Source of the DNA: Callorhinchus milii | Lineage: Eukaryota | DNA length: 64,000 bases | Assembly (NCBI RefSeq): GCF_018977255.1 | Contig: NW_024704742.1 | Coordinates: 74,464,001-74,528,000, forward strand | Direction of reading: 5' to 3' | Shown here: positions 748 through 45,068 of the stretch, piece after piece | How positions within the stretch are numbered: the stretch's first letter is position 1 | How the letters are laid out: every line of letters starts with the position of its first letter | The notes under the pieces: model-generated | Database searches by the model: none | Told to the model about the DNA's origin: nothing | The model's input: the letters and a program-made list of their open reading frames with translations, nothing else | Position numbers and translations under genes: made by a program

Positions 748-2139
748 AATCTTGTGTGATTTTATGAACAAAACATCTCTGCAGTGATTTGAACTGCTAA
801 CTCAGTGGAGGAGCTCCATCTGGTGCTGAGTTAGTGAGTTGACCTTGTTCCTCTCCCAGCTCGAGCTTCCAGTCAGCTGTGTGAAAGCACATTCTCCCGA
901 CAGGAAAGGCGCTATATAAATGTTGTGTTCTCTTATGTCTGAGGTACAAATATCTTTAATATTCTCTGGCTTAAAACCATTTTTCTTAGCATTTTGGAAG
1001 TATTCAATTCAGCCTTAATTTGGAGTGAATTTACAATAGCATCGAAGAAGAACGGTGCCATTGGCTTCCAAATTACAATTAGCAATGTGTTCAGAACTGT
1101 GTACATGCTGTAAACATACAGAGATCAATTTGGTCATCTGGTGCAAGATAATGCCCATGGTTACGGAGCATAAGAAAAGGAGGGCAGAGCGTCCCATGTT
1201 TTCTTTGGGATAGAATTTGTGGTACAAGAAAACTCACAAAAGTCAGGACCATAACATTTAATATAAGTTATACAAAGCATGAGTTACAGGCAAACTTGCA
1301 TAAATTGGATTTTTTATGACTAAAACATAACAGTAAATAAGTACTCATTTTCTGCACTTTCAATGGAGTTTTGGATGTGCGTACTTCAATGCAGCTGATT
1401 ACATGATAAGACAAGTTAAGACTTCCTGCAATGCAACGTTTGAAACAGGCATTGTAAATGGGAGTCGATAAGTGTGGCAGCGACATTACAAGTTAGGAGA
1501 TGATTTGCATAAGATTTAGGATTATTTGGGATTAAGAAGCCCTTACACTTTAACTGTTTATCGATTAATAAAATACAAGTAGTGCAAGCTCGTGCAAAGA
1601 AATCTAAATGTTTTTGGTAGGAAACTGGATGGGACATAAGAGATTATACGATTTATAAAGATAAGACTTATGTGAGTTTTACTGTGTTGTGTTTTTAATG
1701 TTGGTGTAAACCACTAAATGGCAACACACCCTCCAGATAAGTGGATTCTTCTTTTTCACTGCGTGCCCTGCCCCCACCATCCCTCTTATTTTGAAGATGA
1801 TTGAATTGGCCAAAGACCTCTGGCCCAATATATATAAAGTATATATATTTTGACTGAAGACTTTTGCTGTATCCCTGGCAGATCCCTGCGAAAGAAATAA
1901 CCAACAATAAAAGGAACATAGAGATTGATATAGGGCATAAAGTTTACAAAATGTCATTCATCCAGGGAGATTTAAACAAATGATAGTCACTTATCTGGAG
2001 GGCTGTGCTGTCATCTGATGGTGTTAAATAAGGAACACCACAAATATTATCCCTGTATTTCCTCAGGCAGCAAGCAATAAATATTTATTTACGACAGTAC
2101 CAAACGTGTTGCAGTAATACAGTTGATTCTTCTGAGTAG

Positions 2140-2266
2140 ATTTTCCCAAGATGCTCGAAATCAGAGGGGCCTGAGAGAGAACCTTACGATGTCCAAGAAG
2201 TCAAATATTGGGAAAAGAAATAAAGATTATCCCTCAGGAGAAGAGCACAAGTCGTTCAGTTCAAAG
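2140..2266 (+). CDS. CDKL2: CDKL2 internal coding exon just after the kinase domain: (R)FSQDARNQRGLRENLTMSKKSNIGKRNKDYPSGEEHKSFSSK
   Basis: Acceptor ttcttctgagtag|A, donor AAG|gtacga, phase 2 in and 0 out. Peptide resembles the recalled human CDKL2 segment RFSQE...DARNVSLSKKSQNRK. Confidence 0.8.
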
Positions 2267-2855
2267 GTACGACCAGACACAAGCACTAGTAAAGCAGAGG
2301 TCAGCGGGCACTGAAATAATCCAGTCACAATTTGGGAAAGCTTGCTTGACTTTCTTATAACATTCTTTATATTCATTAATACAAAGGGTTAAGAAAGTTC
2401 TTCCTTTGATTTAATTAATGCCAATCTTCTTTAATGAACATTTGCTGTTACTCAGCTTTGCTCCTGACCTCTGTACCCTTCCAGAGGTCTTGGGACGTCC
2501 TCCCGACGTGAAAGGCACTCTATAAATGGAATCTTGTTGTTGTTGTTCCAGCCCCTCCTCCTTCTCAACACTTTCCTATCATTCCCCACTCCTGCCCTCA
2601 CTCTGAAACGTCTCGAAGACGTGATAAGGGGCTATATCAAATACAAGGATTATTCTTATTATTAATGACTTGTTAATGTTTGTTAATCCAGTATTTTAGA
2701 CAGGGTAAGAAGAAATGTAAATTTATACAATGACTGTGTCCTTTTTCACGGTGCACTGTTAGATAGTGGTTAGTGTGGATGTGCTAAGGACACAGTAATT
2801 GGTTGATCCTTTAGGGGAAGGGCATTGATCTTCTTGTTGTCCTCCCTGAATACAG

Positions 2856-3187
2856 GAGTCAAGTTCTGACGTCAAGACAAAAGAAATTAAATCTGACACC
2901 AAGCTGCTGAAAACAAAACCATCCAAAGTGGAGGCTGGGCAGATGGACCGAGCTTTGAATGACATGAACGAGCGGGCTGCTGACAGTGGAGCTCTGCAGG
3001 GTTTCGGTCCCAGCAAGCTGGTATCCCCTGCACTGCTCAGAGAGCTGAGCAGCAGCATCAATCACACAAGCTCACCACCCAGCAATGGCATCCCTCCTAT
3101 TCCTCAGAACCCTCCTCCTGTCACAACCGCAGGCATCAGGGTCAGCCTGAGCCCTGGTGTCGCTGTGTCAACACAACCCAGCTTCAG
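2856..3187 (+). CDS. CDKL2: CDKL2 internal exon ESSSDVKTKEIK...GIPPIPQNPPPV...STQPSF(R)
   Basis: Acceptor cctccctgaatacag|G, donor CAG|gtgggt, 332 nt open, phase 0 in and 2 out. Resembles recalled CDKL2 ...VAIPPLTHN...QGYR. Confidence 0.85.
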
Positions 3188-4174
3188 GTGGGTGGACCTG
3201 TCACAATAGGAAACAAGGCCATTGCACAATGTTGGTTTGCAAGTGATACATATGGTAACATTTTGGGTTTGACCTTCCCTCAGAATTCACCTTTCTCTGT
3301 CAGATAGTGACTGACCAGCCCGCTGGGCAGAGAAACCTCGATATTTTCAGCTCAGGAGGACCACTGCTGAATTGTGTTTCCAAGTTTCCTTTTGTTTTAA
3401 ATATGAATGCCACTTTCCAGAATTTTTTCCATATCCAGTATTACTTTTACTGCTCAGGTACTTATCCAGTTCTGTTTTAAAATGTTCTATTGATTCAGCC
3501 TACCAACCAGTTACTATCCTCCTAGGGGGAGGTAAACATTCATGAGCTGACAACAGAAATGTTAGACTGGAGCCAGTCCTCTGTGACGGTCTCTAATCCA
3601 GTTCCTGAGGCAGGTGCGTTCACAGTATTCCAAGTCACTGCTGATGACAGCGCAGCCAACCTGGCTCATCTGCAGGACTTGGAAGAGCAGACCAGTCACT
3701 GGGGGCAGGGAATCCTCCCACTCAGCTCCTGTTAACCCTGCAAGCCAAAGCCCTAATGGATAGGGTGGTTCCAACTGGACAAGCAGTGAGAGGTTTGCCA
3801 GACCGTGCTCTCAATAGCTGGTTAGACGACAATACCCCAAAACACTCACTGCAGGCCCCAAGCCTTGGCTTGTGCCTAATACTCTTGAGCATGGTGATGG
3901 ATTTCTGCAGGTATTAGACGCTTCTTTGTGAAGGAACTCAGCATGCTGGGCAACACTGCTTTGTGGCTGACCAAAAAAACTGCAGCTTCGATAGCCACTT
4001 ATAATCAATTCCACATCCTAAAAACTCTCTGAATGAAGAGATTCCTTCTCACCTTTCCCTGATTCCTCTGCTAACAATCCTGAAGTTACCAGGGTCCTCA
4101 CACTATGATGGAAGGAGAAGTTGATGGTGCTGTTATTTAGCACAAACTCTTGTTTCTGTTCCATTTTACTTTAG

Positions 4175-4268
4175 GGTCAACAACAAGTTGAAGAAACACA
4201 TAAACCCCCTGAAAAAAGCAAACCAGCCACCTCCATCCAACTCGCACAGCATGAGCCTGAACGGGCCG
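4175..4268 (+). CDS. CDKL2: CDKL2 internal exon (R)VNNKLKKHINPLKKANQPPPSNSHSMSLNGP
   Basis: Acceptor ccattttactttag|G, donor CCG|gtaagc, phase 2 in and 0 out. Resembles recalled CDKL2 RVDEKTKKCSIPFVKPN. Confidence 0.85.
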
Positions 4269-4589
4269 GTAAGCCAGGGACTCTCCACACGAAGGGCTGC
4301 CTCACAGCAGTATTGCTCAGTATGCTCATTTCCCTCACTAAGCTCTTGTTGCACACTGTTACACTGTGGGCAATCCTTGACTGCCTGCACTCATGTAGTC
4401 TGATCTGGTTCTCGTTATACCCCAAAGGGGAAGAGCTGGGACATCTAACACTGTGCTACTTATCCAATAGACAGAGCTTGCTTCCTCTGCTCCAGGCACT
4501 CATTCCTTTTTTTCTTTCTCTCTTTTCTCCAATTATTCCCTTCTTTGTCTTTGACTTCCTATTCCATCCATGTATAGTTGCGTGTTGGG

Positions 4590-4945
4590 AGGATGTCTCA
4601 AAGTACTTCACAGGAGTGTAGAGTGGAATGACTGTATTTTGTGAGCGAACTCGGCAGCACATTTTCCGTCAGCAATGTCCCACAAACAGTCACAGAGTGA
4701 ATGACCAATTTTATTTGGGGGATTGTTAGTCAGGACACCAGGAGAATCTCTCTTCCCTTTCGAATAGCACCATGAGATATTTAACATCCACCTGAACAGG
4801 CAGGCTGATTTAATGTTTCATCCGAAGGATGGCACCCCCAACAATGTAGCATGCCCCCAACGCTGCATTGAAATGTCAGCTAAGACTATGTGGGATCCAA
4901 GTATTGAACCCAATGTATTGGTTCCATGGGGCTTGAATCCAAAAC
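4590..4945 (-). mobile_element. Old Deu-domain SINE (SacSINE1/AmnSINE-like). Similar decayed copies at about 26810-27110, 34650-34920, 46200-46320, 48570-48960, 49730-50090, 53560-54000 and 62820-63090
   Basis: Motifs tttaacatccacctga...catccgaaggatggcacc...gaaatgtcagc...ggggcttgaa, recalled from Deu-SINE consensus. Confidence 0.65.
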
Positions 4946-5879
4946 TTTAAGTAACATTATGGGATATAGCACATAGGTAGTTTGGAACATAAGTGTATGC
5001 GACCACCAGGAAGGTGGAAGGAAAACTAGATGGATCTTGGTCTTTTTTCATCTAGCATTTCTTATGTTCTTAACGGGTTGGTGGTCTTAGCTGGACAAGC
5101 TTGCTGGACAGCAGTATCAATGGCAAGTTATGTGGCTTTAACTGGTTAAACTCCAGCAGCACCCCAACTCATACTTCAGGGTCCCCAAGCCTTGGCTCTT
5201 GCCAACCTGCACCTAATATTTTCCGGAATTAGGTAACCAGGATGTGTCCCTCCAGTGACAGTGCGCATTCCATACCAACAATCTATCTGGGATTTCTATG
5301 TGTAGATGGGATGCATTGAATTCTGTTTGGTTTGGATACACTTAAGCATGCTGATGGGTTTCCCACATGTTTCAACTCACCCGGCTGACCAAAAAAAACC
5401 CTGACTGATTTTCCTCCTCCCTTACAACTGTCACTGCACCTGCAGTTCCTGCTTCTGCCAGCGAATGGCACTCACAGTACAGATAATAATTAAAAGGAAC
5501 TGGGTGAAAGTGGCTGTATCAAAGCAGTTTGGTCCAGGATGAGTTTGTTCTCGGATATCACTTTAAACCCGTCCCAACCAAAAACTTGTTCAAGGTTTAG
5601 ATGTTTACATGTAGGGAAATTACTCCAAGTTGAACTTGTTGTGTAGGACTCTGCCCCCTGTATTATTGCTGAAGCAGCCTGTCAGAGAAGTGCACTGAGC
5701 ACCGACTGGGAAGGTGCTGGTGAGTCTGCTCAGTGTGATCTCTCTTTGTTTTCCTGTGTGAGAGAAACCAGTTTCTCCTCCAGCGGATGTTAGTGACTGA
5801 TGCTCTGAAATTAGGGAAAAAAGAGACAAATCTGAGAGCACAGAATGAGGCTCAGTCCCTACTGCACTGTGGGTGGGTT

Positions 5880-6178
5880 ATAATAATAAGCCTCGCTTTT
5901 TACGTCTTCGAGACGGCTCAAAGCTCTCCACAGAATATACTGTAAAGTGAATTGATTGTATATATTTGTGGGCGAAACAAGGCAGCCAATTGCGCACAGC
6001 AGTGTCCCACAAACAGTGGGGGATGAAGTGACCAATTTATTTTTGTTTTTTTTCTTTGAGAGATTATTATCAGGCATGTGGAGTAAGGAAACTTGTTCAA
6101 GTTTTCGCCCTGCTGGAAATCAAACCCAGATCTCTCGCTTGCGAGGTGAGTGCTCTAATCACCGAGCTACAGGACTCC
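5880..6178 (-). mobile_element. tRNA-SINE copy
   Basis: Homologous to 422-747. Confidence 0.9.
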
Positions 6179-6346
6179 ACTACTGAACTACAGGACTCTT
6201 TTATTTGAACAAGCTCTTTTATTTGAGCATGCATTCTGTCATAAATAGGGGCTCATGTGCTGAGTGATATTACTGTGTTTGTGTGGAGCAAGCATGTGTT
6301 CCTCCTTTTAGGTTCTTTTAGGTTCATTCTTTTGAACTTCTTTTAG

Positions 6347-6491
6347 GTTCAACATGAGAAACTGGAACGAGCCACAATGATGGAAAGGGTGGGAATCACA
6401 GGCAAGAAGAGGTGGGAGCTCTTTAAATCTGAGAAGGAGGTTCATTTGCTGGCCAACAGCAGTCATCTGCCAGAGCTGAGAGGAGCAGAAG
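6347..6491 (+). CDS. CDKL2: CDKL2 exon VQHEKLERATMMERVGITGKKRWELFKSEKEVHLLANSSHLPELRGAE
   Basis: Acceptor cttcttttag|G, donor AAG|gtaaca, phase 0 in and 1 out. GKKR...HLPELR matches the recalled long CDKL2 isoform. Confidence 0.85.
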
Positions 6492-6539
6492 GTAACAGCA
6501 CGTCCAATTTGACTTTTCTGCAGTACACAAGGTTTTATT

Positions 6540-7130
6540 TCAACAACAACATGCATTTATATAGCACCCCTCATACAGGGTAGTGTCCCAGAGCGTTTGA
6601 TAGTGACGGAGCATAACGCTAAGTTGGGCAGAGGGGGGAGGTGACCAGAGGCACAGTCGAAGATGAAGGTCTTCAGGCGCGACTTGAAGACGGGGAAGGA
6701 AAAGGCAAGGTGGTGGGACAGACGAAGAGTGTTCTAGAGTTATGGGGAATAGTGGATGAAAGAGTGGCCACTGATGGTGGAACAAAGGGCACGAGTGACA
6801 TGCAGAAGGCTGGAGCCAGTCGGGAGAAGGCAGCGGGTAGTGGGTTGGGGGATGAGCAGGTCTCAGAGGTAGGGAGGTATCGGCACATGAAGGGATTTGA
6901 AGATGAGTGTGAGAATTAATTCGATTCATTCGATTATAGGGATCAGTGGAGTCTGGCTAGAACTGCTGTGATGGGGTACGAAGTTTAGTGCAGTTGAGTA
7001 TGCGGGTGGCGGACTTTTGGATTAACTGGATTTTGTGGATGGTGGACCTGGGGAGACCAGCGAGGAGGGCATTTGAGAAGTTGAGCCGGGAGGTGAGAAA
7101 CGCACGGGGTGGATCGGGTCGGGGCGGCAG
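6540..7130 (-). mobile_element. Degenerate L2 3' fragment
   Basis: SRLNFSNALLAGLP...KIQLIQKSA and a (GTT)n tail. Confidence 0.8.
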
Positions 7131-8764
7131 CCAAAACACGAATGGAGAGAACTGGAGCAGAGCATTCAGCAGGACATGCTCAGCGCGCAGGCATGGCGGG
7201 GCGAGGGGAGACAGGTCAGAGGAGGAGAGAGAGGGGAGGGTACTCGTGGCTTTGTTTGGACCAAAGCCAGAGAGGGAGAGAGATAATGAACGGGACGGCA
7301 AAGGAGGAAGTCAGGGATAAGGTAAAAAAAAGAAATGGAAGTAATGTCACGCAGGCAGTTTAAGCGGGAGATTTTGAAATGGCGTCTCCGCGCCAGGAAC
7401 AATCGAGCCTTCGACCACCCACCCCCCACCCCCGCGCCTGTCATTGCCCGCTTGCCCACCCGAGGCCTCATCTGGGGGCGAGAAATTTAAACTATTTCTT
7501 AACAGGGTTCCTTAGTATCAGGAACCTGAGTTGCGGGACTGCTTCTGGTAAATGACAGTCCATCTCACAGACCGGTGGAAACTCTTTTGCATGATTTACT
7601 CCCAGCGGGAATTGTATCAGAATCCCTTACTAAGATATCAGGCAGTTAAGAGAGGATGCACTGTGCTCAGCTGTGCTGAGCTGATTTCCATTTAGGATCA
7701 GTAGAAGTGCTCCAGGTTGTATTTCCATTGAAATAGAGCTATGTTTATTTATTAGTTTTCTAGCCAAAGTAAGACACAGTGTTAAATTCTGTGCAATATG
7801 TGAGTGAAGTACTTGAGACTAGAGCTCCACTTAAAGCTCAGTCATAACCTTGCCAAGCACAAAAGATTCAAATACAGGTTCACAAAATCACGGGGAAGAT
7901 TTGGGTGAAGATCCCCACCCTATCATCCTCCCACCACATCGTTAACCAGTTTTTTTAAACGAGTCCACTGTCCTCAACTTGACCACCATTTCTGCCAACC
8001 TGGTTTAGTTGTTAATTACCCTCTGTAAAAAACACTTATTGTCTAGAACTTGCCCTTTGCAACCCTGAAACTTTGTTCTCATGTAGTCTGCTGTCTGTAC
8101 ATCTGGAGGCATTGTTCTGAGTTTACTTTCTCAATCTTTTTAAAAATGTTATACCCCTCTATAAGGTTCCTTCTGATACATTGCTTGTCAATACTAACTT
8201 GCCCTAGCATGGATCATCCTTGATCATAGCTAATTCCTCTAATACTGGGAGTTTCCTGGTTGCTCTCCTTGCACTGCCCAAGGATCTGGACAGTCCCCAT
8301 TAAAATGGCTACATGGCTTGTTTCTCACTGACACAGCCAGGCAGCAGAAATGGGCAGCAGAGTGACCTTTTTTAAAAAAACAAATCCTCTGAAACGCAGA
8401 ACCAATGGGTGGTTCCCATTCAGACTGTATGGACTCGTCTGCTTGGCACTCCGGAATGCTACCCTGCATGAGCGGCGCTATATAAATGCAAGTTGTTGTT
8501 GTTGTTGTTGTTGCTTCCTTGGTTGAAGTGAGCAGAGCTAAGAGGAGACACGACATGATTGTTGGCAAGAAAGAGAGAAAGAGCTTGGGTTTCTTCAGTT
8601 TTTTGCCATGTTTTGGTGTTCTTGCACTGGGAGAATGTTGCCCTGAGCCTTTCTTTCTCTTTCACCCAAATGAAGCTGAAAGCATCACTGAGGTAGCTGA
8701 TCTTCAACATTTGTCTTATTCCTATTCTGTGAAGGTTAACACTAATGGGTTTGATATTTCCTAG

Positions 8765-8868
8765 CCAAGCATTCTAAACCCAAGAAGGAGAACAAGAGAA
8801 TCCCAGAATCCAGAATTCCCTCTCTGGCTGCCATGGACATACCTCATCAACACAGTCTGGCTTCCCAA
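8765..8868 (+). CDS. CDKL2: CDKL2 exon (A)KHSKPKKENKRIPESRIPSLAAMDIPHQHSLASQ
   Basis: Acceptor gatatttcctag|C, donor CAA|gtaaga, phase 1 in and 0 out. KKENK..ESRIPSLAA.D matches the recalled CDKL2 C-terminal motif closely. Confidence 0.92.
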
Positions 8869-10258
8869 GTAAGAGTCTATATGAAATATGCATCCCCTAC
8901 TCTGGTGAATTGTTACTGCACGTGTTGGGGGGAGAAGGGAAACAACACTGATGAATCAGGAAACAGAAAAAGAGCCAAACTCCATCACTGATACAAGAAA
9001 ATAGCCTTGAGGCCTTCCTTCCAGTGTATCAACATACCGTCATTCTGTTACACCCTCAAGCTCTCTCTTAAATGAGGCCAGGATTCTGACCTCATGCACC
9101 CTTCCTGTTCCTCTCATTGGTTACCCTCTGAGTAAATAAATACTTCCTGCTGTCTATATTGTCTACCCTTTTTGCCTGAGATCAGCTAACACAGAAGAGC
9201 AGAAATTGAACCTAGAATTTTTGACGTGTTTGGCTCAGTATCACTACCCTGAGGTACCAACCTTCTTCAATGGATATTATTGAATATTTATCCCATTCTA
9301 TAGCTTTGGCCGCCACATTTGCCTACAAAATACATAGTCACTACACGTCATGGCAAACCCAATGAAGCAGTTTGAAACATTTTGACAAAATGTGATAAGG
9401 TGTTATATCAAATACAAGGTTATTTTTAAGATTATTTTGAGGGATTGGTCCGTTTCATCAGATTGGCAGAAATATGAAATATCCATCAAATTTCCTTTTG
9501 ATAACTCATTGATTGAACTCAGACTTCATTCCACGACTTAAGAGCACAGAGTTCAGCGCTGGCTGATAGGAAACTTGGGTAAAGAATCAGGGAAGAGATT
9601 GAAAACAATTTGTTCATTCACAGAGTTGTCAGGTTTGTGGAATTCATTGTCACAAGTGGCTATTGAGGCCAGATTAATTGAAGTATTCAAAAGGGAAAGG
9701 AAAGCATCTGAGCAGTAAAATCACTGGGATATAGGAGAGAGCTGGAAAACAATATTAATATAGTACTTAAAAAAAAGATAGTTTAGAAAATCAATGGTCT
9801 GAATGACTACCTTCTGCACAGAACATTTCTATTTTTAAGGAAGAAAAAGTAAAGTAAGTCTGATATTCACACTCTGTAAAATAATATAAATCCTTAGATT
9901 TGATAGAGCCTTTCATGTAGGGAAAACCCCCCTAAAGTGCTACTCACGTTTACTGTAAAGTGCAGTGACTGTGAGTTTTGTGTTTTGCCACAATAAATTC
10001 CAGTTCCTTGATTCCCTGTCAAACTGCTTTTCCTAAAAAGAAAAACACATACTGGAAATGAGAAATAAATCCTAAATGTGCAGAGGGTCGATCAGCCCCT
10101 GATAGTCACTTCGGGTGTGACTCAGGAGAGGTTCACTGACTGACCTCTCTGAATAATCACACCTGACTTCCCTTCAAGCTTGGACTGACCTGCTGTTTAT
10201 TTCCAGAATTTCAATTTATTGATTAGCATTTCTGACAGGTTTTTCACTCTATTCCCAG

Positions 10259-14597: not shown

Positions 14598-15340
14598 ACA
14601 TAACAACATAACATGTATGAGCCGGAGTAGGCCATATGGCCCTTCGAGCCTGCCCCGCCATTCAATCATGGCTGATCTTCTAATCTAACTCCAGCTAATA
14701 ACCTAACCCTGCCTTATCCCCATATCCCTTAATCCCTTTTGCAATAAGAAATCTATCTATCTCAGTCTTGAATATGTTCAAGGACTGAGCGTCAATAGCC
14801 CTTTGGGGTAGTGAGTTCCATACATTCACCACCCTTTGAGTGACGAAGTTCTTCCTCAACTCAGTGTGAAAGGGCTGGCCTCTGATTTTAAGGTTGTGAC
14901 CCCTGGTTTTAGTTTCTCCAACCAGGGGAAACAATCTCCCACTATCTACTCTATTATGCCCTTTGATGATCTTATAGGTTTCTATAAGATCCCCTCTAAT
15001 TCTTCTATATTCCAGAGAATATAGGCCCAAATTGGTCAGCCTATCCTCGTAACTCATCCCCTTCATCCCTGGTACTAACCTAGTAAATCTACGCTGTACC
15101 CCCTCCAAGGCAAGTACATCCCTCCTTAAATAAGGAGACCAAAACTGCACACAGTATTCCAGGTGTGGTCTCACCAGGGCCCTATACAGTTACAGCAAGA
15201 CTTCCTTACTCTTATACTCTAATCCTTTCATAATGAATACTAACATACCGTTCGCCTTCCTAATTGCTGCTGCACTGCAGACTAACTTTCTGTGATTGGT
15301 GTCCAAAGACACCCAAGTCCCTCTGGACGCTAACACATTC
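14598..15340 (-). mobile_element. CR1 LINE 3' fragment, young
   Basis: [13 protein letters not shown]...TRGHNLKI...FVTQRVVNVWNSLP plus 3'UTR. Confidence 0.95.
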
Positions 15341-17771: not shown

Positions 17772-20715
17772 ACAACAACAACAACAACAACAACAAGATT
17801 CCATTTATAAAGCGCCTTTCACGTCAGGAGGACGTCCCAAGGCGCTGCACAGTTGGGTCATGACCCGAGCAGGGGGAAATGGTCAGGGTGAGGGGAGGGA
17901 GGGAGCGAGGAGGGGGGAAATGGTCAGGGTGAGGGGAGGGAAGGGAGGGAGAGAGGAGGGGGAAATGGTCAGGGTGAGGGGAGGGAAGGGAGGGAGCGAG
18001 GAGGGGGAAGAGAGTCGAGAGGGGAGCTGAAGGCTCGGTCAAAGAGAAAGGTTTTGAGACCGGCCTTGAAGGAGGAAAGGGAGGAAGCGGCGAAGGCACT
18101 GGGGGATGGAGTTCCAGAGCCTCGGGGCTGAGAGGCTGAAGGCCCGACCACCGATGGTAGGGCGGTTGGGGCGGGGGACGTGGAGCAGACCGGAGCCAGA
18201 GGAACGGAGGGTACGGGCAGGTAGGTAGGGGGATAGTAGGTTGGAGAGGTAGGAGGGAGCAAGGCCGTGAATGGCCTTGTAGGTGAGGATGAGGATCTTG
18301 AAATCAATCCTCTGGGGGATGGGGAGCCAGTGGAGGCGAGCGAGGGTGGGAGTGATGTGGTCCCGAAGCCTGGTGCGGGACAGTACACGAGCTGCAGAGT
18401 TCTGAATGACCTGCAGCTTGTGGAGGGAGGTGGCGGGAAGGCCGGCGAGGAGAGAGTTCCCATAGTCCAGCCTTGAGGTGACAAAGGCGTGAACCAGGGT
18501 TTCAGCAGCGTGAGGGGTGAGGTAGTGCCGTAGTCTGGCGATGTTCCGGAGGTGATGGAAGGCGGTGCCAGTTGTGGTGCGGATGTGAGGGAGAAAGGAC
18601 AGCTCAGGGTCGAACAAAACGCCGAGGTTCCTGACTGGCTTTGAGAGGTGGAGAGTGCAGCCTTGGATGCTGATGGTGTCAGCGCCTGAGGTGCGGAGGC
18701 GCTGACGTGAGCCAATCAGGAGGGCCTCGGTTTTTCGCACGTTGAGCTGAAGAAAGTTGTCTCTCGTCCAGGACTCGATGTCGGACAGGCAGCTGTCAGG
18801 ACATCGGTGGTCGTGGAGTTGAGAGTAGAGGAGGAAAGGTAGAGTTGGGTGTCATCCGCATACATGTGGAAGTTAACTCCATGTCTGCGGATGATGTCAC
18901 CGAGGGGGAGCATATAGAGGGTGAAGAGGAGGGGACCGAGGACAGAGCCCTGAGGGACACCACATGAGACAGTGCGGGGGGTGGAGGAGAAGCCATTCGT
19001 CGAGACAAGTGAAGACGGTGAGAAAGGTACGACCTAAACCATTCAAGGACAGTGCCTTGAAGGTTGAGGTGGGAGGACAAGCGGTGGAGTAGGATAGCGT
19101 GGTCGACCGTATCGAATGCTGCCGATAGGTCGAGGAGGACGAGGAGACAGAGGGAGCCCTGGTCACAGATGGTCAGGATATCATTGGTGACCTTGACCAG
19201 GGCAGTTTCTGTGCTATGGGCAGCACGGAAACCTGACTGAAGGGGTTCGAAAAGAGAATGGGTGGAAAGGAAAGAGCGCAGTTGGGAGGCGACAACTCTT
19301 TCCAAGACCTTGGAGAGAAAGGGGAGGTTGGAGATGGGCCGGTAGCTTGATAGCTGCGACGCATCAAGGGAGGGTTTTTTCAGGGTGGGCGTGATGATGG
19401 CAGTTTTTAATGGAATGGGGACAGAGCCAGAGGAGAGGGACAGGTTGATGATGTCAGTGATATGTGGGGCAAGAAAATGGAGCTGGGAGATAAGGAGTGG
19501 AGTGGGGATGGGGTCAAGGGAGCAGGTGGTTGGTTTTAGGGATAGGATGAGTTCAGTGACAGAGGGTGGGGAAACGGGTACGAAGGTGTGTAGGGGAGGA
19601 TGGGTAGGAGTCGGAGTGTGGGAGGGAAGGGGTGGGTGGTGGGTGGAAGTTGGAGGGGAAGTGACCGCGGAGCGGATTCCCTTGATCTTGGATTCAAGGA
19701 AATCCAGCATCTCCTCGCAGTGAAGGTTGGAGGAGATGACCTGCGCGGGGTGGCGGGGGGGACGGAGGAGTCGGGTTGTGGTGGAAAACAGTAGCCTGGG
19801 GTTGTTCTTCGCCTCCAGGATTATCCTGGAGTAGAAGGACGACTTGGCCGAGGCTAGAGTGGAGCGGTAAATTTTGAGGAGGTCCAGCCAGATTTGTCGG
19901 TGGACCGTTAGGCCAGATTTGACACAGGTGCGTTCAGCAGCCCGCACCTGGCTTTTCAGTGAGCGGAGGTGGGTGGTGTACCAGGGGGAGGAGCGGGAGT
20001 AGGAGACAGTGCGGGAAGTGATGGGGGCAAGAGTATCGAGTGTGGAGGAGAGGGTATTGTGGAGGAGGGAGAGAGGAGAAGAGGGGTCGGTGAGGGTTGA
20101 AGGCCAGAGGGAGAGGAGTTCAGAGGACTCCAAGGCATCGGTTAGGGATTGTGGGGGTAACTTCTTCCAAGGGCGGTAGAAGATGGTGGTGGGTCTGGTG
20201 GAGGTGGGGAGGGGGGTGGAGGTGGTGAAGGAGATGAAGTAGTGGTCAGAGATGGCCTTGTCGGTAATAGTGACATCCGAGACACTGAGGCCCCGGGTGA
20301 TCACCAAATCGAGTGGGTGGCCGTGACTGTGAGTGGGGGAGTTTATGTGTAAGGAGAGGTTGAGTGAGGAGAGCAGGGAAGAGAAGTCTGTGGAGATGGA
20401 GCAGGAGGGGGTGAAGTGTAGGTTAAAGTCGCCCAGGATGATGAGGCGATCGGAGCAGAGGCAAAGAGATGTGAGGAGTGTTGAAATGTCAGAGATGAAG
20501 GTGGGAGAGGTTTTAGGGGGCCGGTAGAGGAGGAGGATTTTAAGGGAGAGGAATGAGGGGTGGGAGAGGGTGAGGTGCTCAAAGGAGGGGAAAGAGCCAG
20601 TGGAGTAGGGGGATAGGGCAAGTGGTGTCCTTGAGATAAGGGCAACACCACCGCCACGGCGGTTGGGGCGGGGGATGTGGTGGGAGGTGTAGCCGGGTGG
20701 CGTGGCCTCCGTGAG
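17772..20715 (-). mobile_element. L2-clade LINE, about 2.9 kb, 5'-truncated within the endonuclease domain, ORF2 frameshifted
   Basis: APE remnant (GGGVALI, GDFNLH), RT motifs [30 protein letters not shown] and [11 protein letters not shown]-terminal LHWLPIPQRIDFK, and a (GTT)n tail. Confidence 0.95.
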
Positions 20716-22219
20716 GTGGGATGCGTGGAAATCTCAGCTCGGTTTGGATACTCTTAAGACTGGGGATGGGTTTCCAGCTGACCCAAAACAAAACTAAATT
20801 CTGACGTGCCAAGATCTCAAGAGTTACAGGTGAAAAAGGCTCTTTGGCTCATTTGTTCCCCCCAATCCCAGCATTAAAGCTGCTCCATACCAGTTCAGTG
20901 TTATGGCCTCCAGCCCTAGCTTATTTTAAGGATGAATAAGAGGCACCTTTCTATATCTAATTATTATTATAATTTAATTGTAATTTAAAAATAATAAAAT
21001 AAATTTACAAATAATTTGGTTGTTTTCTGTTCCACAAGTATTGAAAGCCAAACAAAACAGCAATCCCACACTCTGCGGAAGATTTCTTTCATTAATATAT
21101 TTAATAATAAAACTTTCTAATTATTATCATAATCCTCCAAATAAAACTGGTGACTCACTTCATGGCTTTTTAGGGGACACTGCTGTGTGCAATTAGGTGC
21201 CATGTTTGCCCACAAAATACACAGTCAATCAACTTCACAGTAAATGGAGTTCTCCCGATGTGAAAAGATGTACAGAAATGCAAGGATAATTATTATCTGA
21301 CAGATTACGTTGTCACAATACAACAGCTGAACTCCCCATGCAGCAGCATGATTATTGGCAAGGTTATTTCTCTAGGGATTGCTACTGCAGCGTATTATCA
21401 ATATCAACAGCAGAGAGGGTGATGATTGTGCAATGAAGGCGGGGTAGCAGACAGAGCTCTGTGACTTCGAGCCATTGCTATTTTGTACTCACAAGTCAAC
21501 TAAAGAGTGCCTACAGTGAACTGTGCTTTTAATTACAGGGTTTCCGAAAATAATTTTTATTTATTTGATCAAAAATGTCCCAAATTTAAGTAACTTGGAG
21601 TCGTAATCTTCTTATTATTGTGGTTCCAACTAGTTTTAAAACTTGGAATAATGACTATGGAGAGCAGGGTGTGTGGGCTGCGGTGCACTGCATCTGACTG
21701 ATGATGCCTGTTTACTGCCTCTTTCACATCCATTAGTCAACCAGAAAAAATTCTTTCTGCAGTAGGTGACATTGCTCTTTTTGTTTGTCTCTCAGCACTT
21801 GTGGCAACAGAAAATAATCAAACAAAGACACAAAATAAGACTGAAAGAACTTTAGTAATAACAATACTTGTCAAAATGTGAAGTTCAAATTCAAAAATTG
21901 AGAATTCAAAAAGAGGGCAATAATTATAAATGAAATCAAAATTCAAAAGCAAGGCAAATAAAGTTTTGTAACAACAACTTTCACAAACGAAACATTTTGG
22001 AACATCTTTAAGGATTCGATTAGAGATGTACACGCTTTGAGGGTTTTGAAAACAAGGAGAAAAAGTGTAAGGTGAAAAGATATTAAGAGAGCTTCAGAGA
22101 GCGAGGCTTCTTGGCTGAAGGCGTGGGCACTGGTAAAAGGGATTGAGATTGGGATGAGATAGTTAGTGGAGTATATGGGCAAGAGTTAGACCTGGCGAAA
22201 ACTGCAGAGACAGATTTTT

Positions 22220-30310: not shown

Positions 30311-30331
30311 TTTATTAAAGTTACATTTATT
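30311..30331 (-). terminator. Tandem AATAAA polyadenylation signals of the repeat-protein gene
   Basis: tttatt at 30311-30316 and 30326-30331 on +. Followed on - by a GU/U-rich element (catgtctttgtttcctttg). Closes an AT-rich 3'UTR of about 1.55 kb. Confidence 0.65.
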
Positions 30332-31856
30332 AAAGTTGCATTCTAAAGTGAAATATATATTCATGATATAGTCATGATAGTAAGTCAACAGCCACCATTT
30401 GGCCATTCTCCTTTGAATTAACTCCTGATAATTCATTCATTGAGAATAGAGCAATTGATTTTACTTAGAGCAAAATGTAACATGTATTGATGTATATCTG
30501 TTGTTATTGCATTGTATCTTAATATAATCATACCTGGAGATAAATCCAATGATGTGGCTACTAACCTCTTCAGGCAAGATCATCAACACTAATGAAGAGG
30601 CTCAGAAAACAACAGCACTTTTGCAATACTTGCTGATGATTTTAAGACATTTACTCATGCAGTTATAATATATAATGTGGCTTTTCTACACCAAACGTTT
30701 ACCCTGTTTGCTAAATGTGAAATACCTTACCCGAAGTTACGTTATATAGGATACACCCTGAAATGGCTGATTCTACCTGCACACCCAGCTTGTGGCTAGT
30801 TGCACTTTTGCAAACAATCTTTCCCTAATTGGCTGGCATAAACGTGTCAAATGCAAATTTTAAATTGCATAATTGACCAGATTTTATAATACTTGCGAAT
30901 ATACCAAAGGAGGGAAGTCATTATCAATGTATCTATAATATAGAAAATTATTGCATTCAGTATTAATTAGGAAAAACAGTTATTTCTAACTGAAAAATCA
31001 AGTTTCAAATTAAAACTAAATTTAACAATTTTCCACAATTCTGCACAATTTGAAACCTTAAGACAAAATGATCAGTTTGATCTATTTCTAAAATGTGGTT
31101 CCCTCAAGAATTGTAATGTGATTCCATATCACAACATGCTTTTACAGGCTAAAACTAGATTGAGGATTCCTAACAGTTGATAAGAATGTAGAAAACAAGT
31201 ATTCATTTAGATACATATCAAATTGTGAACCGACAAAACATTTTATACTTGAAGGAGTTTAATTTAGTATTAATTTATGTATCGATTACATTTCTGAACA
31301 TTAATTTGTATTTGAAGAAACACTTTCACATGTGATACATATTCAAATGTTCTTCTTTGTTTTTTTTTAAAAAGCAATCGTCCAGTTAAACAGAATGGCA
31401 ATAGAGTTAAAGTCATCAAACAACTATTTTAAGTGTTCAGAACTCAGCTGCTAAAAGAGAGGAAGAGTCAAGATGCAATTAACCCTCTAATCATATACTA
31501 GCACAAGGTGACAGAAAGAATATTCCTGGCAACATTTTTAAAAAGTCCAATAATTTGCACTTTAATATATCTGTAATTTATATGCCAATTTGCTTTAAGA
31601 ACTGATCTGGTGATTACTTTCTTTCTACTGGTAATTTAGAGGCTGAAATTCCTCTTGTTGTTATGTGTTAAAGGTTGGTGATGAATGCTTATACTGGATT
31701 TTTAAATTGAAACTCAGTGACAAGAGGAATGTCTCCCCTTAAAACATTATTCAGTATCTGCCACTAAAACTAGCAATCATACAGGTATTGTTACTGGCTC
31801 TTGATTTACAAGATACTGGCTAATCTGGCGAGGTCAAGGGAACAGTTGAACTGGAT

Positions 31857-33567
31857 TTAATTTGGCAATTTATTATTTTTTCTAGAAAGGAACCTATATC
31901 GATAATTTGGGTGTAATCTATAATAATACAGTTTTTTAAAAGCAGAGGGATAATTCACACCAGCAATTGTATTCTGACTCTTCTCTGATTCTGACACCAG
32001 ACTAGATCTCTCATATTTCCCATTATCCTCATTAGTTTGACTATTAGATCCATACTGACTATGTTTATAATTATAATCAATATTCTGGATCAGATCAGAG
32101 TCGTAGACAGTACTTTGTGTAACTTTCCCATTGCCATATTGGTCATATTTGCTATTTTGTATTGGCTGATCATTTTGCTCATTGATTTTTGTTTCTTCCA
32201 TATTGCCATATTGGTCTTGCTGAATACTTTTCACTCCTTGACTAGTGTCTTGTGTTTCTTGTCCATTTCCATATGGATCATAGGTATTACTTTTCCCTCC
32301 TTGACCTTTGCTATAAGGATCATATTGAGTATTTGTCACCAACCCATTAATGTCATATTGGTTGAGTTGCTCTGTCTGAATGTTACTATATGAATCATAT
32401 CCATTGCCTTGATTATTGCCATATGGGTCATATTGCCTGCCTTTCAGTCCATCAGTCGTACCATATGGATCATATTGATTGGCTTCTTCTCTCTGACCAT
32501 TACCATATGGATCATACCCACTGCTTTTTATTCCCTGACTAGTGCCATATGGGTCATATTGACTGCTTTGTGTTTCCTGTGCATTGCCATTTGGATCATA
32601 TACATTGCCATTTGGATCATACCCATTGCCTTTTATTCCCTGACTGATGTCATATGGGTTATATTTAGATTTTTGTCCATTGTTATAGGGATCATACCCA
32701 TTGCCTTGCATTCCATGATGAGTGCCATATGGGTCATATTGACTCTTGTGTATTTCCTGACCATTGTTGTATGGTTCATATCCATATCCTTTTATTCCTT
32801 GACTAGAGCCATATGAATTGTATTGACTGCCTTGTGTTTCCTGTCCATTGCCATATGGGTCATATCCATTGCCTTTTATTCCCTGACTAGTGCCATATGG
32901 GTCATGTTGACTGCCTTGTGTTTCCTGTCCATTGCCATATGGGTCATATCCATTGTTGTATGGATCATACTCATTGCCTTTTATTCCCTGACTTGTGCCA
33001 TGTGGATTGTATTGACTACCTTGTGTTTCCTGTTCATTAGCATTTGGATCATACCCTTTGCCTTTTATTCCTTGACTAGTGTCATATGGGTCATATTGAC
33101 TACCTTCTGTTTCCTGTCCATTGGTGTATGGATCATACCCATTGCCTTTTATTCCTTGACTGGTGCTATATTGGCTGCCTTGTCCAGTCTGACTGCTTGC
33201 TTCTACCTGACTACCTTCTGCCTGACTGTTACTGTATGGGTTATACCTATTGCTTTTCAGGAGCTGACTAGTGTCATAGGGGTGATCCTCACTGCCTTGT
33301 GCTTTCTGCCCATTGAGATCTGGGTAATTTGTGCTGGTTTGTGTTTCTTCCCATTGTTATATAAATTGACATTGCCTTGTGTGTCCTTCCAGCCTTGGGA
33401 TTTTGAGTGAGAGGAAGGTTGTAAACTGTCCAAATTTGGTCTTCTTTTGTTGTTGGGAGATCTTTGGTAGGTTCCGTGTTTGAGGATTGGTGCAAATATT
33501 CTGCTGTAATGGCAGCGCCGGGCCCTAGATCGGGGCATGTGGTAAACCTCCGCTCCCTTTTGTAATT
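31857..33567 (-). CDS. Exon 2 of a secreted Tyr/Gly/Asn/Gln/Asp-rich tandem-repeat protein (ODAPH-like candidate), with a 1-nt frameshift at 33350-33352
   Basis: Acceptor ttttgttttgtag|AA is phase 1 and in frame with exon 1 (ELQKGAEVYHMPRSRARRCHYSRIFAP...). The repeat frame is open from 33350 to TAA at 31857 and includes track ORF 31857..32711. Adding one G to AATGGG|AAGAAACA gives NGEETQ and a 593 aa ORF. Confidence 0.8.
32200..33170 (-). repeat. Coding minisatellite, about 84 nt (28 aa) unit SQGIKGNGYDPYGNGQETQGSQYDPYGT, about 9 good copies plus degenerate ones
   Basis: Recurrent gccttttattccctgactagtgccatatgggtcatattgactgc on the + strand. Each unit is two roughly 14 aa halves containing YDPY. 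Confidence 0.9.
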
Positions 33568-34380: not shown

Positions 34381-35109
34381 TTAGAAGGATTTCTAAAAGC
34401 TAAATCTTTCTACTGAGTCACCCTATTAATGATGTTCCAATAGGGAGCACCGTCTGGAAAACTTTCCAGCTTGCACCAACGTACTTATTTAGAGCTTTGT
34501 TTGCAGCATGAACAAGAGCTGACTGGTGGAGTCTGTCATTTCAGGTATTACTGATGAGTCAGGTTGGCTGAAAGAAGTCTAGCGCTTGGTTAAGACTTTA
34601 ACAATTTCTATGGTTCTGTGAACTAGATTTAAGATTAAATAAACAAATAATACTTGCATTTGATATAACGCCTATAACATTGAAAGATCACAAAGCGTTT
34701 CAGGGTTAATTGCTATAAAGTGAGTGACCTATATTTGTAAGCCAGACCAGTGGCCAATTTGTCCTTAGCATTGTCCCACAAACAGCTTGGTGGGTATACG
34801 TCTCATGTAAAGCCTGGTACCTCTAACATTGCAGCATTCCTCCAGCACCTCCCTCAAGTGTCAGCCCTGGTCGAGGAGCTCAAAGTCAAAGATTGAAACC
34901 ATTAGTCTGAGATGAAGAGAAAATGAATGAATGTTCTTTTGAGAATTCTGGTTCCGACAGCCATGATCAGGAGAGATGTAAGGAAGACTTTCAGGATGAT
35001 TTACTTACTTTGGTGTTTTGATCCTTTCATCTTTGCTTGCTGACATTCTGGAAGCTCTGGATAGGCTGTACAGTTTTTATCACGGGTTTTGATTGTAGTT
35101 TCATGATTA

Positions 35110-35700
35110 AGAACTAGGAGGATAGAAGAGATGCAGGAGAAATATATTCCATTAAGAAATAAGGGGAAATTAATAAATAATGAGATGCCATGGATGAATA
35201 AGGAGGTGAAGACAAAACTGCAACAAAGTAAAAAAGCATTTGAAAATTACAGAATTATAATAGAGAGGAAAACAGAAGTGAATACAGCAGACTTAGAAAC
35301 GAGGATAGGTTAGTCCTTTTTCACTGGAGAAAAAACCTTTAAGGGGGCATGTAATAGAAGTACTGAAAATCATAAAAGGGTTTGATAAGGGTGACATAAA
35401 TAGGCTGTTTCCACTGGTTGCGGAATCTATAACCAGAGGAAACGAGTAAAAGATAGTGACTAGGGGATCAAAAAGAGAATTTAGGAGGAACTACCTCATG
35501 CAGAGAGTAGTGAGAATGTGGAACTTGCTGCCTGAAGCAGTGGTTGAATCAGTTAGTATAGATGCATTCAAGAGGAAGCTAGACTTCAGAGGAGGGAAAG
35601 GGGAAGAGAAGTGTAAGGGATGAAGTAAGGATTGGTTGGTGACTCCTGTGGAGTATAAACACTGGCATGGACTGGTTATGCTGTACATTCTGCATAAATC
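35110..35700 (+). mobile_element. Internally deleted CR1 fragment
   Basis: QEKYIP...PWMNKE segment joined to RVVRMWNLLP-like 3' DNA. Confidence 0.7.
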
Positions 35701-35921: not shown

Positions 35922-36478
35922 AGGTTTAGGCCTCAGTTAGAATACAGCGCCCAGTTCTGGGCACCACACTATAGGAAGGATGTTAAAGCATTGGACAGGG
36001 TGCAGGGGAGATTTACAAGAATGGTACCAGGAATGAGGGACCTTGATTATGAGGAAAGGCTAAAGAGGCTGGGATTATTCTCATTGGAGCAGAGAAGGTT
36101 ACGAGGAGACCCAGTAGAAGTCTTCAAAATCATGAGGGGATTTGATAGGTTAGAAAGGGAAAAACTGTTTCCACTGTTGGGTGTCGGTGACTCGAGGTCA
36201 CAGATTCAAAATAGTCTCTAAAAGAAGCAGAGAGGAGGTGAGAAGAAATGTTTTCACGCAGCGAGTTGTTCAAGCACTGCTTGAAAGGGTGGTGGAGGCC
36301 GATTCGATAACTACTTTTAAAAACTCGGTGGACGGGTACTTGAGGAGGATGGTTTGCAGGGTTACGGGGAAGGGGCTGGGGAGTGGGATTGACATTACAT
36401 TGCTCTATTCAAAGAGCCGGCACAAACTCGATGGGCCGAATGGCCTCTTTTGTGCTGTACGATTCTATGATTCTATGA
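35922..36478 (+). mobile_element. CR1 3' fragment
   Basis: RPQLEYSAQFWAPHYRKDV and an (ATTCTATG)n tail. Confidence 0.9.
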
Positions 36479-37123
36479 AACCCCAAATAAATGTTTTTCC
36501 ACTAGTGGCTCAAAACAGTAATTAAATCAATCCATATAGTTTTGTTTTATTTGGCCTTAGATCTCATTAAAAGGACATTGACTTCCAAAAAAAGCCAATG
36601 CTTCTCAGTACTGTATTGAAGTATCAGTATCGACTTTGAGTTCATGTTGCCCATTTTAATGTTGTCTCAGCACCTTGGGACGTCCTCCTGACATGAAAGG
36701 CAACTGTAATTTTGTATTTTATTGTATGTTGGTTTAACCTTCTTTTATAAAACGTTAAATATTTCTAAACAAAACAAAATTGCTGCAGAGAGTCAATGAA
36801 TGCCTTACAGAAATTAAACTTAAAAGACAGTGGAGTGAATTACAAAGCAATAACCCACCCCAGGGTTGAGACAGTTCTCAAATATCAAAGCATTTATTTT
36901 CATTTCAACCCAACCAGAATGCGTTACTGATCTGCATCCTTTATATTACATACAAATATAACAATGTTTAGCTGTTTTCTATCTACTTTGATATTTTATT
37001 GCAATGAAAATGTTGTCACACAAAGCAATATTTTGCTCTTTGGCATTTGCACCCACAGCACAGGAGTACAAAGCTACCGACAAGTAATAGTTCTCAAATA
37101 TCAAAGCATTTTAAGCATTTTGT

Positions 37124-37429
37124 GGAGTCCTGTAGCTCAGTGATTAGAGCACTCGCCTTGCAAGTGAGACACCTGGGTTCAATTCCAGGCAGGGCGAAAC
37201 CTTGGGCAAGTTTCCTTACTCCACACGCCTAATAATAATCCCTCCAAAAAAACAAACAAAAAAATTGGCTATTTTCAATCCATGACTGTTTGTGGGACAT
37301 TGCTGTGTGCAATTGGCTGCCGCGTTTCGCCCACAATTATACAGTCACTTTGCAGTATATTCTGTAAAGCGCTTTGAGACATGTAGAAGATGTGAAAAGT
37401 GCTATATCAAATGCAAGGATTATTATTAT
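37124..37429 (+). mobile_element. tRNA-SINE copy
   Basis: Homologous to 422-747. Confidence 0.9.
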
Positions 37430-37439
37430 AAGTTGCTTG

Positions 37440-38487: not shown

Positions 38488-38557
38488 CTGAAGACAGGGT
38501 CATAATTTGTAAGCTGATGAGAACAAAGAGCGTGAGCACAGTGGCTGTAGGGTCCAT
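38488..38557 (-). CDS. Exon 1 of a secreted repeat protein (ODAPH-like candidate): signal peptide MDPTATVLTLFVLISLQIMTLSS
   Basis: Strong Kozak context GCCATGG, 23 codons plus 1 nt with a hydrophobic core, consensus donor CAG|gtaagg (phase 1), TATA box about 38 nt upstream. Confidence 0.85.
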
Positions 38558-38594: not shown

Positions 38595-38672
38595 TTATAT
38601 AGAGGTACATGACATACATTACACTCCCTCATAACCTTAAACCAATAATTAGTGTGCATAAGGTACCAATCA
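38595..38672 (-). promoter_or_regulatory. Proximal promoter of the repeat-protein gene: TATATAA plus two CCAAT boxes
   Basis: TATATAA on the - strand at 38601-38595; CCAAT on the + strand at about 38642 and about 38666. Confidence 0.6.
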
Positions 38673-42070: not shown

Positions 42071-42949
42071 AAGGTATTGAAGGGCCAGCATTCAAGATGC
42101 CCAGGTGAGTTCTCTGGTTGATGATATAGTACCACTTCTGTATAAGATCTAAGAAGCAAGTAAAGACTTTGCCGTTTTTGTGCAGCAGGTTGTCAGGTCA
42201 ATGGCAACTATTGAAGAGCAATAGAATGGAAAGGCCATGTGTATGAGGGAACAGATGTTGGATTAGTTTTCCACAAACAATGTGCTGGAACATATTTAAT
42301 TTGTTTTTATTTTCAAAACTGAAATCAATTCTCCTTTAAGGATATATCTATGTCATAGCTAATTTTGCAATAAGTAATTCATATTTTCAGAAATAGCTTT
42401 TCCTAAGCTTCAAATTGATAGGTGTGTGATCCATAGAATAATTCCACATCACGGAAACTCAGCATATAAGTACAATTATCCCAGTCAACATGCTCAGTCA
42501 CTGGCTACTTTAATGACATAGCAATAAGATGGTACTTTGCCAGCAAACCAGCATTTAGTGTAGTGGAGCCAGTATAAGTGAAGCCATTTATAATTATCAT
42601 AATTTGTTTAATCACATAAATCATCAGTGGCATCATCAATAAGCAGATAGCATTTCTTCTGACCTTCATAAAACAAAGAGTTACATTTTGAGTTAAGGCT
42701 GGAATCTGATTAGCCTCACTGGGTTTTTGTGATTATACTTCCTTCTGCTTTGCATTTGTTATAAACATTGCATGACAATCAGAAGATAAGAAGTCAGTCT
42801 ATCTTTTTGTCAGGTGGATATCTGAGATTTATGGGACATCTTGTGATGTACCAGTTTTCTTGGTGTTCTCGAGGTCCAAGTCCAATGGAGTGTACCAGGC
42901 TTATTCTACATCAACTGTTTCAGGCTGCTCAGTGACAGAATATATCACT

Positions 42950-43520
42950 GGCATAGAATACAAAAGTCAGGAAGTTATGATGAATCTTTATAAAACACTG
43001 GTTAGACCTCAGCAAGAATACTGTGTTCAGTTCTGGGCACCACACTTTAGGAAGGATGTCAAGGCATTGGAGAGGGTGCAAAAGAGATTTACCAGGATGG
43101 TACCAGGAATGAGGGACTTCAGTTATCAGGAGAGGCGAGAGAAACTAGGGTTATTCTCTTTGGAGCGGAGAAGGTTAAGAGGAGACTTAATAGTTGTTTT
43201 CAAAATGATGAGGGGATTTGATAGGGTGAACAAGGAGAAACTATTTCCTCTGGCGGGTGGGTCAGTAACCCGAGGGCACCGATTTAATATAGTTGTTAAA
43301 AGAAACAGAGGGGAGGTGAGGAGACATTTTTTCACACAGCGAGTTGTTCGGATCTGGAATGCATTGCCTGAAAGGGTGGCGGAAGCTGATTCGATATAAC
43401 ACCTTTTAAGAGAGAAGTAGATAATTATTTGGTGAGGACAAGTTTGCAGGGCTATGGGGAGAGAGCGGGGCAATGGGATTGATTTGGTAGCTCTTTTCAA
43501 AGAGCTGGCAGAGACACAAT
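42950..43520 (+). mobile_element. CR1 3' fragment
   Basis: GIEYKSQEVMMNLYKTLVRP..EYCVQFWAP...FFTQRVVRIWNALP. Confidence 0.92.
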
Positions 43521-43976: not shown

Positions 43977-44595
43977 GTAGATCACGGTCACCATGCTGTA
44001 ATAAAGCCAACCTTTGACGGAAATGGGAGGACAGGGTGTTGCAGAGTTTCTCCTAATCACGATGACTCAGCCAACTCCCTTATAAATGCAGTAGAAATAA
44101 CAGGGATCAGACAAATTTACATTCTGTCAAATTGCTACCTCATTTTTTCAGCTTGTAAATATTCATCCAGTTATGATGTACATCTAAAAAAAGTCACTGA
44201 GTTCAGTGTATCCTAGTCATTCAAAACAATTAACCTGAGGCTTAAACTCATGCTGTTTTATCTACAGTGATACTGCCAACCGAAGCGGGTAGAATTCTAT
44301 CAATTCAATGTAAGTGTAAGGTACCTAATTTTGGGTTCACAATAACACAGCAACCGTAAATTTATGTGTCAAAAGTCAATTTGTTTTTTTTTACAAAAAT
44401 TATGTGGTGAAAAGGACGTGCTAGGATAGTGTATTTTAAGATGTTTTATAAGTGTGTACACAGTTGAAGTGGGCCTTTAAATACACAACTCAAATAGATA
44501 AGATACCAAATAGAGTAAAACTCCATTATAATGCAATAGTTTGGATCCATGAAATCCCATGTCCCTGATCGCTGGTCAGCAATTCTTTAAGTTCT

Positions 44596-45068
<473 letters not shown>

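Follow-up and report, generated by a model that had tools for sequence, protein, structure and literature searches.

Genes and repeats at the CDKL2 locus

The 64-kb stretch of DNA analysed here (the window) belongs to the elephant shark Callorhinchus milii, a chimaera. It contains the end of a known gene and, on the opposite strand, a second gene that is probably absent from the annotation. The known gene is CDKL2, whose last five coding exons, closed by a TGA stop codon, occupy positions 2138-8991 of the plus strand as located by a UniRef match and tblastn; positions 2850-3185 are 99% identical to C. milii CDKL2 (UniRef V9KJA9_CALMI). The CDKL2 exon at 6347-6493 (plus strand) has one Glu codon fewer than V9KJA9 and one Leu/Met change, an allelic or sequencing difference. 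The second gene, referred to below as the repeat gene, lies on the minus strand with its coding end at 31857, and the two genes are thus oriented tail to tail, 23 kb apart.

A Pfam screen of 149 ORFs chosen by splice signals in the intergenic and upstream DNA, a procedure that may miss short or poorly conserved exons, returned just LINE domains and one sub-threshold DUF. Within these 23 kb no secreted-type gene other than the repeat gene was found, no gene was recognised by the ORF screen on its other side (38.7-64 kb), and no paralogue of it was found within the 64-kb window.

Several repetitive elements were also observed. Between the two genes (18039-20733, minus strand) lies an almost complete LINE ORF2, which encodes both an endonuclease and a reverse transcriptase domain and is split by frameshifts near 19030 and 18850, and LINE 3' fragments at 14695-15189, 36154-36525 and 42776-43399, which we take to be CR1-like, gave no above-threshold Pfam match. 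A tRNA-like SINE occurs in many copies (574, 12852, 52829, 55684, 37073-37430 and others) with very high read depth, and one of its strands resembles an exon that encodes a signal peptide and ends in a phase-1 donor, which can mislead gene-finding programs. Several spurious long ORFs arise from a compound microsatellite of tetranucleotide units spanning about 480 nt (44592-45068).

Predicted structure of the repeat gene and its product

Based on splice signals only, the repeat gene is predicted to consist of three coding exons, with both introns in phase 1. Coding exon 1 (38488-38557, minus strand, 70 nt) starts with an ATG in a strong Kozak context, encodes a 23-residue hydrophobic stretch called as a signal peptide by a hydropathy heuristic, and ends in a strong phase-1 donor. 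It was the best-placed of seven ATG-donor candidates in the window, four of the others being copies of one SINE-derived stretch. A TATA-like box (TATATAA, 38595-38601, minus strand), read by eye, is located 44 nt 5' of the ATG, which suggests that the putative signal-peptide exon is the first exon and is preceded by a very short 5' UTR. Coding exon 2 (35009-35113, minus strand, 105 nt, phase 1/1) was identified by a splice-signal scan, in which its acceptor and donor were the best-scoring on the minus strand, and encodes Cys38-x8-Cys47 as well as an N-glycosylation sequon.

The coding part of exon 3 (31857-33567, minus strand, with the acceptor before 33567) terminates in TAA and encodes, in this order, a basic Arg/Pro/aromatic segment that carries Cys77 and an RxxR site, the repeat array, a Gln/Asn/Ser tail and a basic Tyr/Arg-rich end. 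A phase-0 reading of exon 3 was rejected, as it requires another donor phase and stops after 91 codons. The likely 3' UTR (30316-31856, minus strand), proposed from sequence signals alone, contains ATTAAA at 31566 and 31263 and AATAAA at 30331 and 30316. The read-through product has 628 residues with three Cys (38, 47 and 77) and is predicted to be secreted by virtue of its signal-peptide exon. In sample X7, guessed to be RNA, a 171-nt contig falls within the array, the introns are covered too and no exon-exon joint was found.

A base missing from the assembly

In the assembly the basic N-terminal part and the array are in different frames and can be joined only through a base that is absent. 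Spliced as assembled, the gene gives a product that ends at residue 161, because the frame in which exon 3 is entered differs from that of the array. One extra base was present at 33349-33352 in the long contigs of all three DNA runs examined (X1, X2 and X4, three samples from one study with the same species label, taken to be DNA from their even intron cover). Its letter varies between samples, producing a Gly or an Arg codon, and exon 3 has 569 open codons with either letter. It is therefore likely that the missing base is a consensus error of the assembly at a polymorphic site, and the repeat gene is taken to be intact in its predicted three-exon form. Programmed frameshifting was rejected, since other samples simply carry the base. 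The spanning contigs account for 9.5, 9.9 and 6 of summed depths of 13.8, 27.2 and 13.9 at the gap site in the three runs; other short records overlap the site, so that a segregating null allele is conceivable.

The sample contigs break inside the array, between 32555 and 32926. Three differences between samples were found in the array (32484, 32708 and 33035), all of them missense. The variant at 32708, shared by X1, X2 and X4, brings back the consensus Lys and could be a second assembly error.

The YDPY repeat array

The stop-to-stop ORF at 31857-33356 (minus strand) comprises 499 aa with no start codon of its own; when the exon was shuffled 2000 times the longest ORF had a median of 98 and a maximum of 278. 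Within it, Tandem Repeats Finder detected periods of 21, 42 and 84 nt and their multiples at 32415-33171. Combined with a listing of the units, this delimited a YDPY tandem array at 32244-33161 (minus strand), which corresponds to residues 195-500. A preliminary description of this DNA had estimated a repeat of 300-400 aa; the array is real, and its 306 residues lie at the low end of that range. It is composed of two alternating 14-residue units, in agreement with the two YDPY halves described before, plus variants of 7 and 11 residues. YDPY occurs 13 times and YDPYG eight times, and Tyr residues are separated by gaps of 3 and 11 residues in alternation. Both of the 7-aa internal duplications reported earlier were recovered, and the unit lengths (21, 33, 42, 75 and 108 nt) are each divisible by 3, as expected from the claim that indels in the array keep the frame.

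The array contains no Cys or Trp, has 17 I/L/V/M among its 306 residues and carries a net charge of -21, while the N-terminal part (+13) and the C-terminal 45 residues (+7) are basic. The composition and the basic termini around a mildly acidic core are thus as previously noted, and intrinsic disorder, also proposed then, is predicted for the array by charge-hydropathy. Tyr represents 13% of the residues and G/S/Y/Q/N together 62%, with both Gln and Lys present. The suggestion of Tyr sulfation fared poorly, the sequence context being weak (three or more acidic neighbours at 5 of 65 Tyr).

Two rough tests, the units being related by duplication, were applied to the 14-residue units (16 of 22). 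Against the unit consensus, pN/pS was 0.50 and 0.48, and 95 substitutions produced no stop codon, an outcome seen in 0.9% of 20,000 neutral simulation runs (P=0.009). In addition, the 263 codons of exon 3 outside the array are open (P about 1e-8), likewise a sign of constraint. The tests on the units point to selection on the protein. In the array region the other two minus-strand frames are broken by 10 and by 44 stops. Hydrophobic plus-strand ORFs at 31995-33410 were rejected as an antisense shadow of the array that is interrupted by stops.

Relationship to known protein families

The 499-aa ORF gave no match at E<=0.001 among 8000 candidate proteins, nor did the 71-aa start of exon 3 match any of four longer candidates. 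Using phmmer against 1.84 billion representatives, 15 matches with 19-33% identity were obtained, and the eight inspected were unrelated repeats. Atlas searches returned nothing usable, none of 52 pattern matches in metagenome contigs was confirmed, and a PDB search with a CDKL2 exon had no matches.

According to the accessible text of Leurs 2022 (PMC9122587), members of the SCPP family require phase-0 introns and S-x-E sites. Membership of the repeat gene was rejected, as both of its introns are in phase 1 and its product lacks S-x-E. The product shares with SCPPs, including elasmobranch scpp and the Tyr-rich and P/Q-rich enamel proteins, a predicted secreted, disordered, Tyr-rich and partly acidic character and a plausible role in mineral matrix; in contrast, SCPP genes are found at the sparc-L locus and the repeat gene beside CDKL2, and none of the 149 ORFs screened in the window encodes a SPARC-type domain. 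The Spp2 duplicates of cartilaginous fish carry a cystatin-like Spp-24 domain, and membership in this group was rejected given that the repeat protein has no Pfam match and just three Cys. Lamprin, suckerin and FUS-type LCDs are Tyr/Gly-rich self-assembling or prion-like proteins which, like the array, have Tyr regularly spaced in a G/S/Q/N background, a likeness of composition only. Chondrichthyan egg cases are collagen-based, and no Gly-X-Y run of the kind found in collagen-type egg-case proteins was present in the array units.

Comparison with ODAPH

Liang 2021 (PMC7807025) placed non-eutherian Odaph downstream of Cdkl2 and described the genes of alligator, lizard, caecilian, gar and reedfish as having three exons and two phase-1 introns. 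Non-mammalian Odaph proteins have 2-3 Cys, one encoded by exon 2 and one or two by exon 3, and an SSEE motif (Liang 2021).

The chimaera gene likewise lies downstream of CDKL2 and, in the splice-signal model, has three coding exons and phase-1 introns only. Human ODAPH and CDKL2 are presumably also oriented tail to tail. In both the chimaera gene model and ODAPH a signal peptide of about 23 residues is encoded almost entirely by exon 1, which measures 70 nt in the chimaera, 67 nt in human and 64 nt in mouse; the first Cys of the last exon falls at codon 19, 21 and 20, respectively, and the last exon encodes basic Arg/Pro/aromatic segments. The total of three Cys fits the 2-3 of Odaph, with a split between exons 2 and 3 of 2+1 instead of 1+(1-2). 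The TATA-like element 44 nt before the ATG has a counterpart in the TTTAAA located about 48-56 nt upstream in mammalian ODAPH, as judged by eye. On the other hand, the chimaera protein is five times longer than human ODAPH (628 residues, 306 of them in the YDPY array, versus 130), and its host is a cartilaginous fish, unlike the known hosts of Odaph. SSEE, a feature of non-mammalian Odaph, and S-x-E, the kind of site used by FAM20C, are absent from the entire 628-residue protein, which does contain a single S-x-D (position 151) and, at 580-587, a patch of Ser and Glu.

A comparison with human ODAPH was made by eye, without statistics, using the CDS in the supplement of PMC12906968. Residues 76-86 share 4 of 11 positions with human residues 94-104 (R-C-x5-F-x-P), and residues 607-623 share 5 of 17, plus 4 similar, with human residues 104-120. 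These stretches are contiguous in human ODAPH and lie on either side of the array in the chimaera protein. As points against the comparison, Tyr and Arg abound at the end of either protein, the R-C-x5-F-x-P match may be due to chance, since this stretch is a gap in all four marsupial rows available, and the best-conserved therian ODAPH motif, around Cys43, was unrecognisable by eye in the chimaera protein. Pfam applied to single-exon pieces of the repeat gene gave no match and nothing above noise. The Pfam ODAPH model is built from mammals.

Considered together, these data make it likely that the repeat gene is the elephant shark orthologue of ODAPH, into which a lineage-specific Tyr/Gly/Gln/Asn repeat of 300 residues was inserted. 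Orthology is graded as likely only, in view of the lack of a significant match, the missing SSEE, the marsupial gap and the unrecognised Cys43 motif, and ODAPH membership is not claimed because SSEE is missing. A less probable reading is that of an unrelated, lineage-specific secreted repeat protein lying downstream of CDKL2 by chance, its intron phases and short motifs being coincidental. Phase-1 signal exons are common among secreted proteins, no significant sequence match was obtained anywhere searched, SSEE is missing and a single flanking gene, CDKL2, supports the locus match; moreover, Emerling 2026 holds ODAPH to be therian. Against such a coincidence, the gene agrees with Odaph in its location, in how many exons it has and in the phase of both introns, as well as in the size of the signal exon, the number of Cys, the place of the first Cys and the presence of a TATA-like box near the ATG; nor was any other secreted-type gene found in the 23-kb interval.

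The preliminary description had envisaged a structural or biomineral matrix protein of hypermineralised tissue or egg capsule. The signal exon, predicted disorder, composition and constraint are consistent with an extracellular matrix-type protein. As to the tissue, the mineralised option is favoured by a locus and exon structure matching those of the tooth gene ODAPH, and the egg capsule, which gains no support, is the weaker option.

Proposed role in chimaera dental tissues

Mammalian ODAPH, that of the mouse for instance, is located in the basal lamina that separates the ameloblasts from the enamel, and binds LAMC2 (PMC10829723, PMC12273980); the phosphorylated protein nucleates apatite (as cited in PMC7807025). 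Toothed mammals without enamel have kept the gene, and toothless mammals have lost it (PMC13331816; bioRxiv 2021.11.10.468114). Chimaeras possess dentine tooth plates, tenacular teeth and clasper denticles and have no enameloid-crowned teeth (PMC12452905); their hypermineralised tissue, pleromin, consists of whitlockite and is formed by mesenchymal cells with scant organic matrix (PMC7596707, PMC6419362). The retention of ODAPH in enamel-less toothed mammals fits the dentine-only tooth plates of chimaeras.

If the repeat gene is orthologous to ODAPH, a dental role is fairly probable, while the prospects of a dental matrix or attachment role as such are judged to be even. It can be hypothesized that tooth-plate or other odontode-forming cells secrete the protein at the boundary between cell and mineral. 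There, its short basic Arg/aromatic-rich ends, the ODAPH-like parts, would bind basal-lamina proteins or polyanions, and the unpaired third Cys could link chains. The disordered array would self-associate through its evenly spaced Tyr to form a hydrated, mildly acidic cement, in which Asp/Glu, in place of the lost phosphoserine, might hold a Ca/Mg-phosphate precursor. Taken as a whole, the explanation of an intact, secreted ODAPH orthologue with an inserted repeat that acts at the odontode cell-mineral boundary is held with barely more confidence than doubt. The fact that pleromin is made by mesenchymal and not by epithelial cells counts against this explanation, as does its scant organic matrix (PMC7596707, PMC6419362). 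A more specific proposal, that ODAPH was present in the jawed-vertebrate ancestor and that in chimaeras phosphoserine gave way to the Tyr-Asp repeat, which would condense and act as a template for magnesium whitlockite in the tooth plates, is regarded as improbable in that full form; under it, the repeat gene would have been overlooked owing to the one-base assembly error.

An ODAPH orthologue could also have been co-opted in holocephalans for a non-dental material such as egg case, skin or fin spine sheath, the loss of SSEE and the gain of the Tyr array marking a change of job towards quinone or dityrosine tanning. The missing phosphorylation motif, the 13% Tyr together with Gln and Lys within the array, and the absence of enameloid-crowned teeth in chimaeras (PMC12452905) agree with this scenario. 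It is nevertheless considered unlikely, as every ODAPH studied so far is tooth-restricted in function in the accessible sources (PMC13331816; bioRxiv 2021.11.10.468114) and, for the egg case in particular, the sequence has no collagen Gly-X-Y run. Far less probable is a decaying pseudogene or null allele, with a frameshift that is real in some fish and a long frame that is a by-product of repeat composition: the frameshift is present in the assembly and the spanning contigs, from three runs of one study, make up just part of the depth at the gap, but the frame is restored in 3 of 3 DNA runs, splice sites, Kozak context and TATA-like box are intact, pN/pS is about 0.5 and stops interrupt the other two minus-strand frames of the array, 10 in one and 44 in the other.

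Implications for the age of ODAPH

The age of ODAPH is disputed. Its origin was placed in the bony-fish ancestor by Liang 2021 (PMC7807025), whose accessible text leaves sharks unmentioned, whereas BLAST and synteny suggested a therian innovation, with no synteny support outside therians, in the accessible part of PMC12906968 (2026); the gene is also called a therian neomorph in PMC13331816. The elephant shark genome itself underlies the argument that chondrichthyans have no SCPP mineralisation genes (PMC9122587).

No report of ODAPH in any cartilaginous fish was found in the open-access text searched. ODAPH is not mentioned in PMC7814152 or PMC12120383. ODAPH/C4orf26 and shark were co-mentioned only in PMC12906968, where the accessible text refers to shark in connection with myosin, and the accessible portions of PMC13188829, PMC12200857 and PMC9999432 hold nothing bearing on the repeat gene. 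Likewise, no paper naming both ODAPH and CDKL2 was found in the open literature, Liang 2021 having misspelled the name.

If the repeat gene is orthologous to ODAPH, the origin of the latter would move back to crown gnathostomes, the first jawed vertebrates. Cartilaginous fishes and humans would then have in common a dental matrix gene outside the SCPP family, a finding that would bear on whether enamel, enameloid and other hypermineralised tissues have an ancestral toolkit in common. The product is a concrete candidate for the organic matter in the whitlockite tooth plates and would be, if the whitlockite-templating proposal is true, the first candidate matrix protein of the hypermineralised tooth plates of chimaeras.
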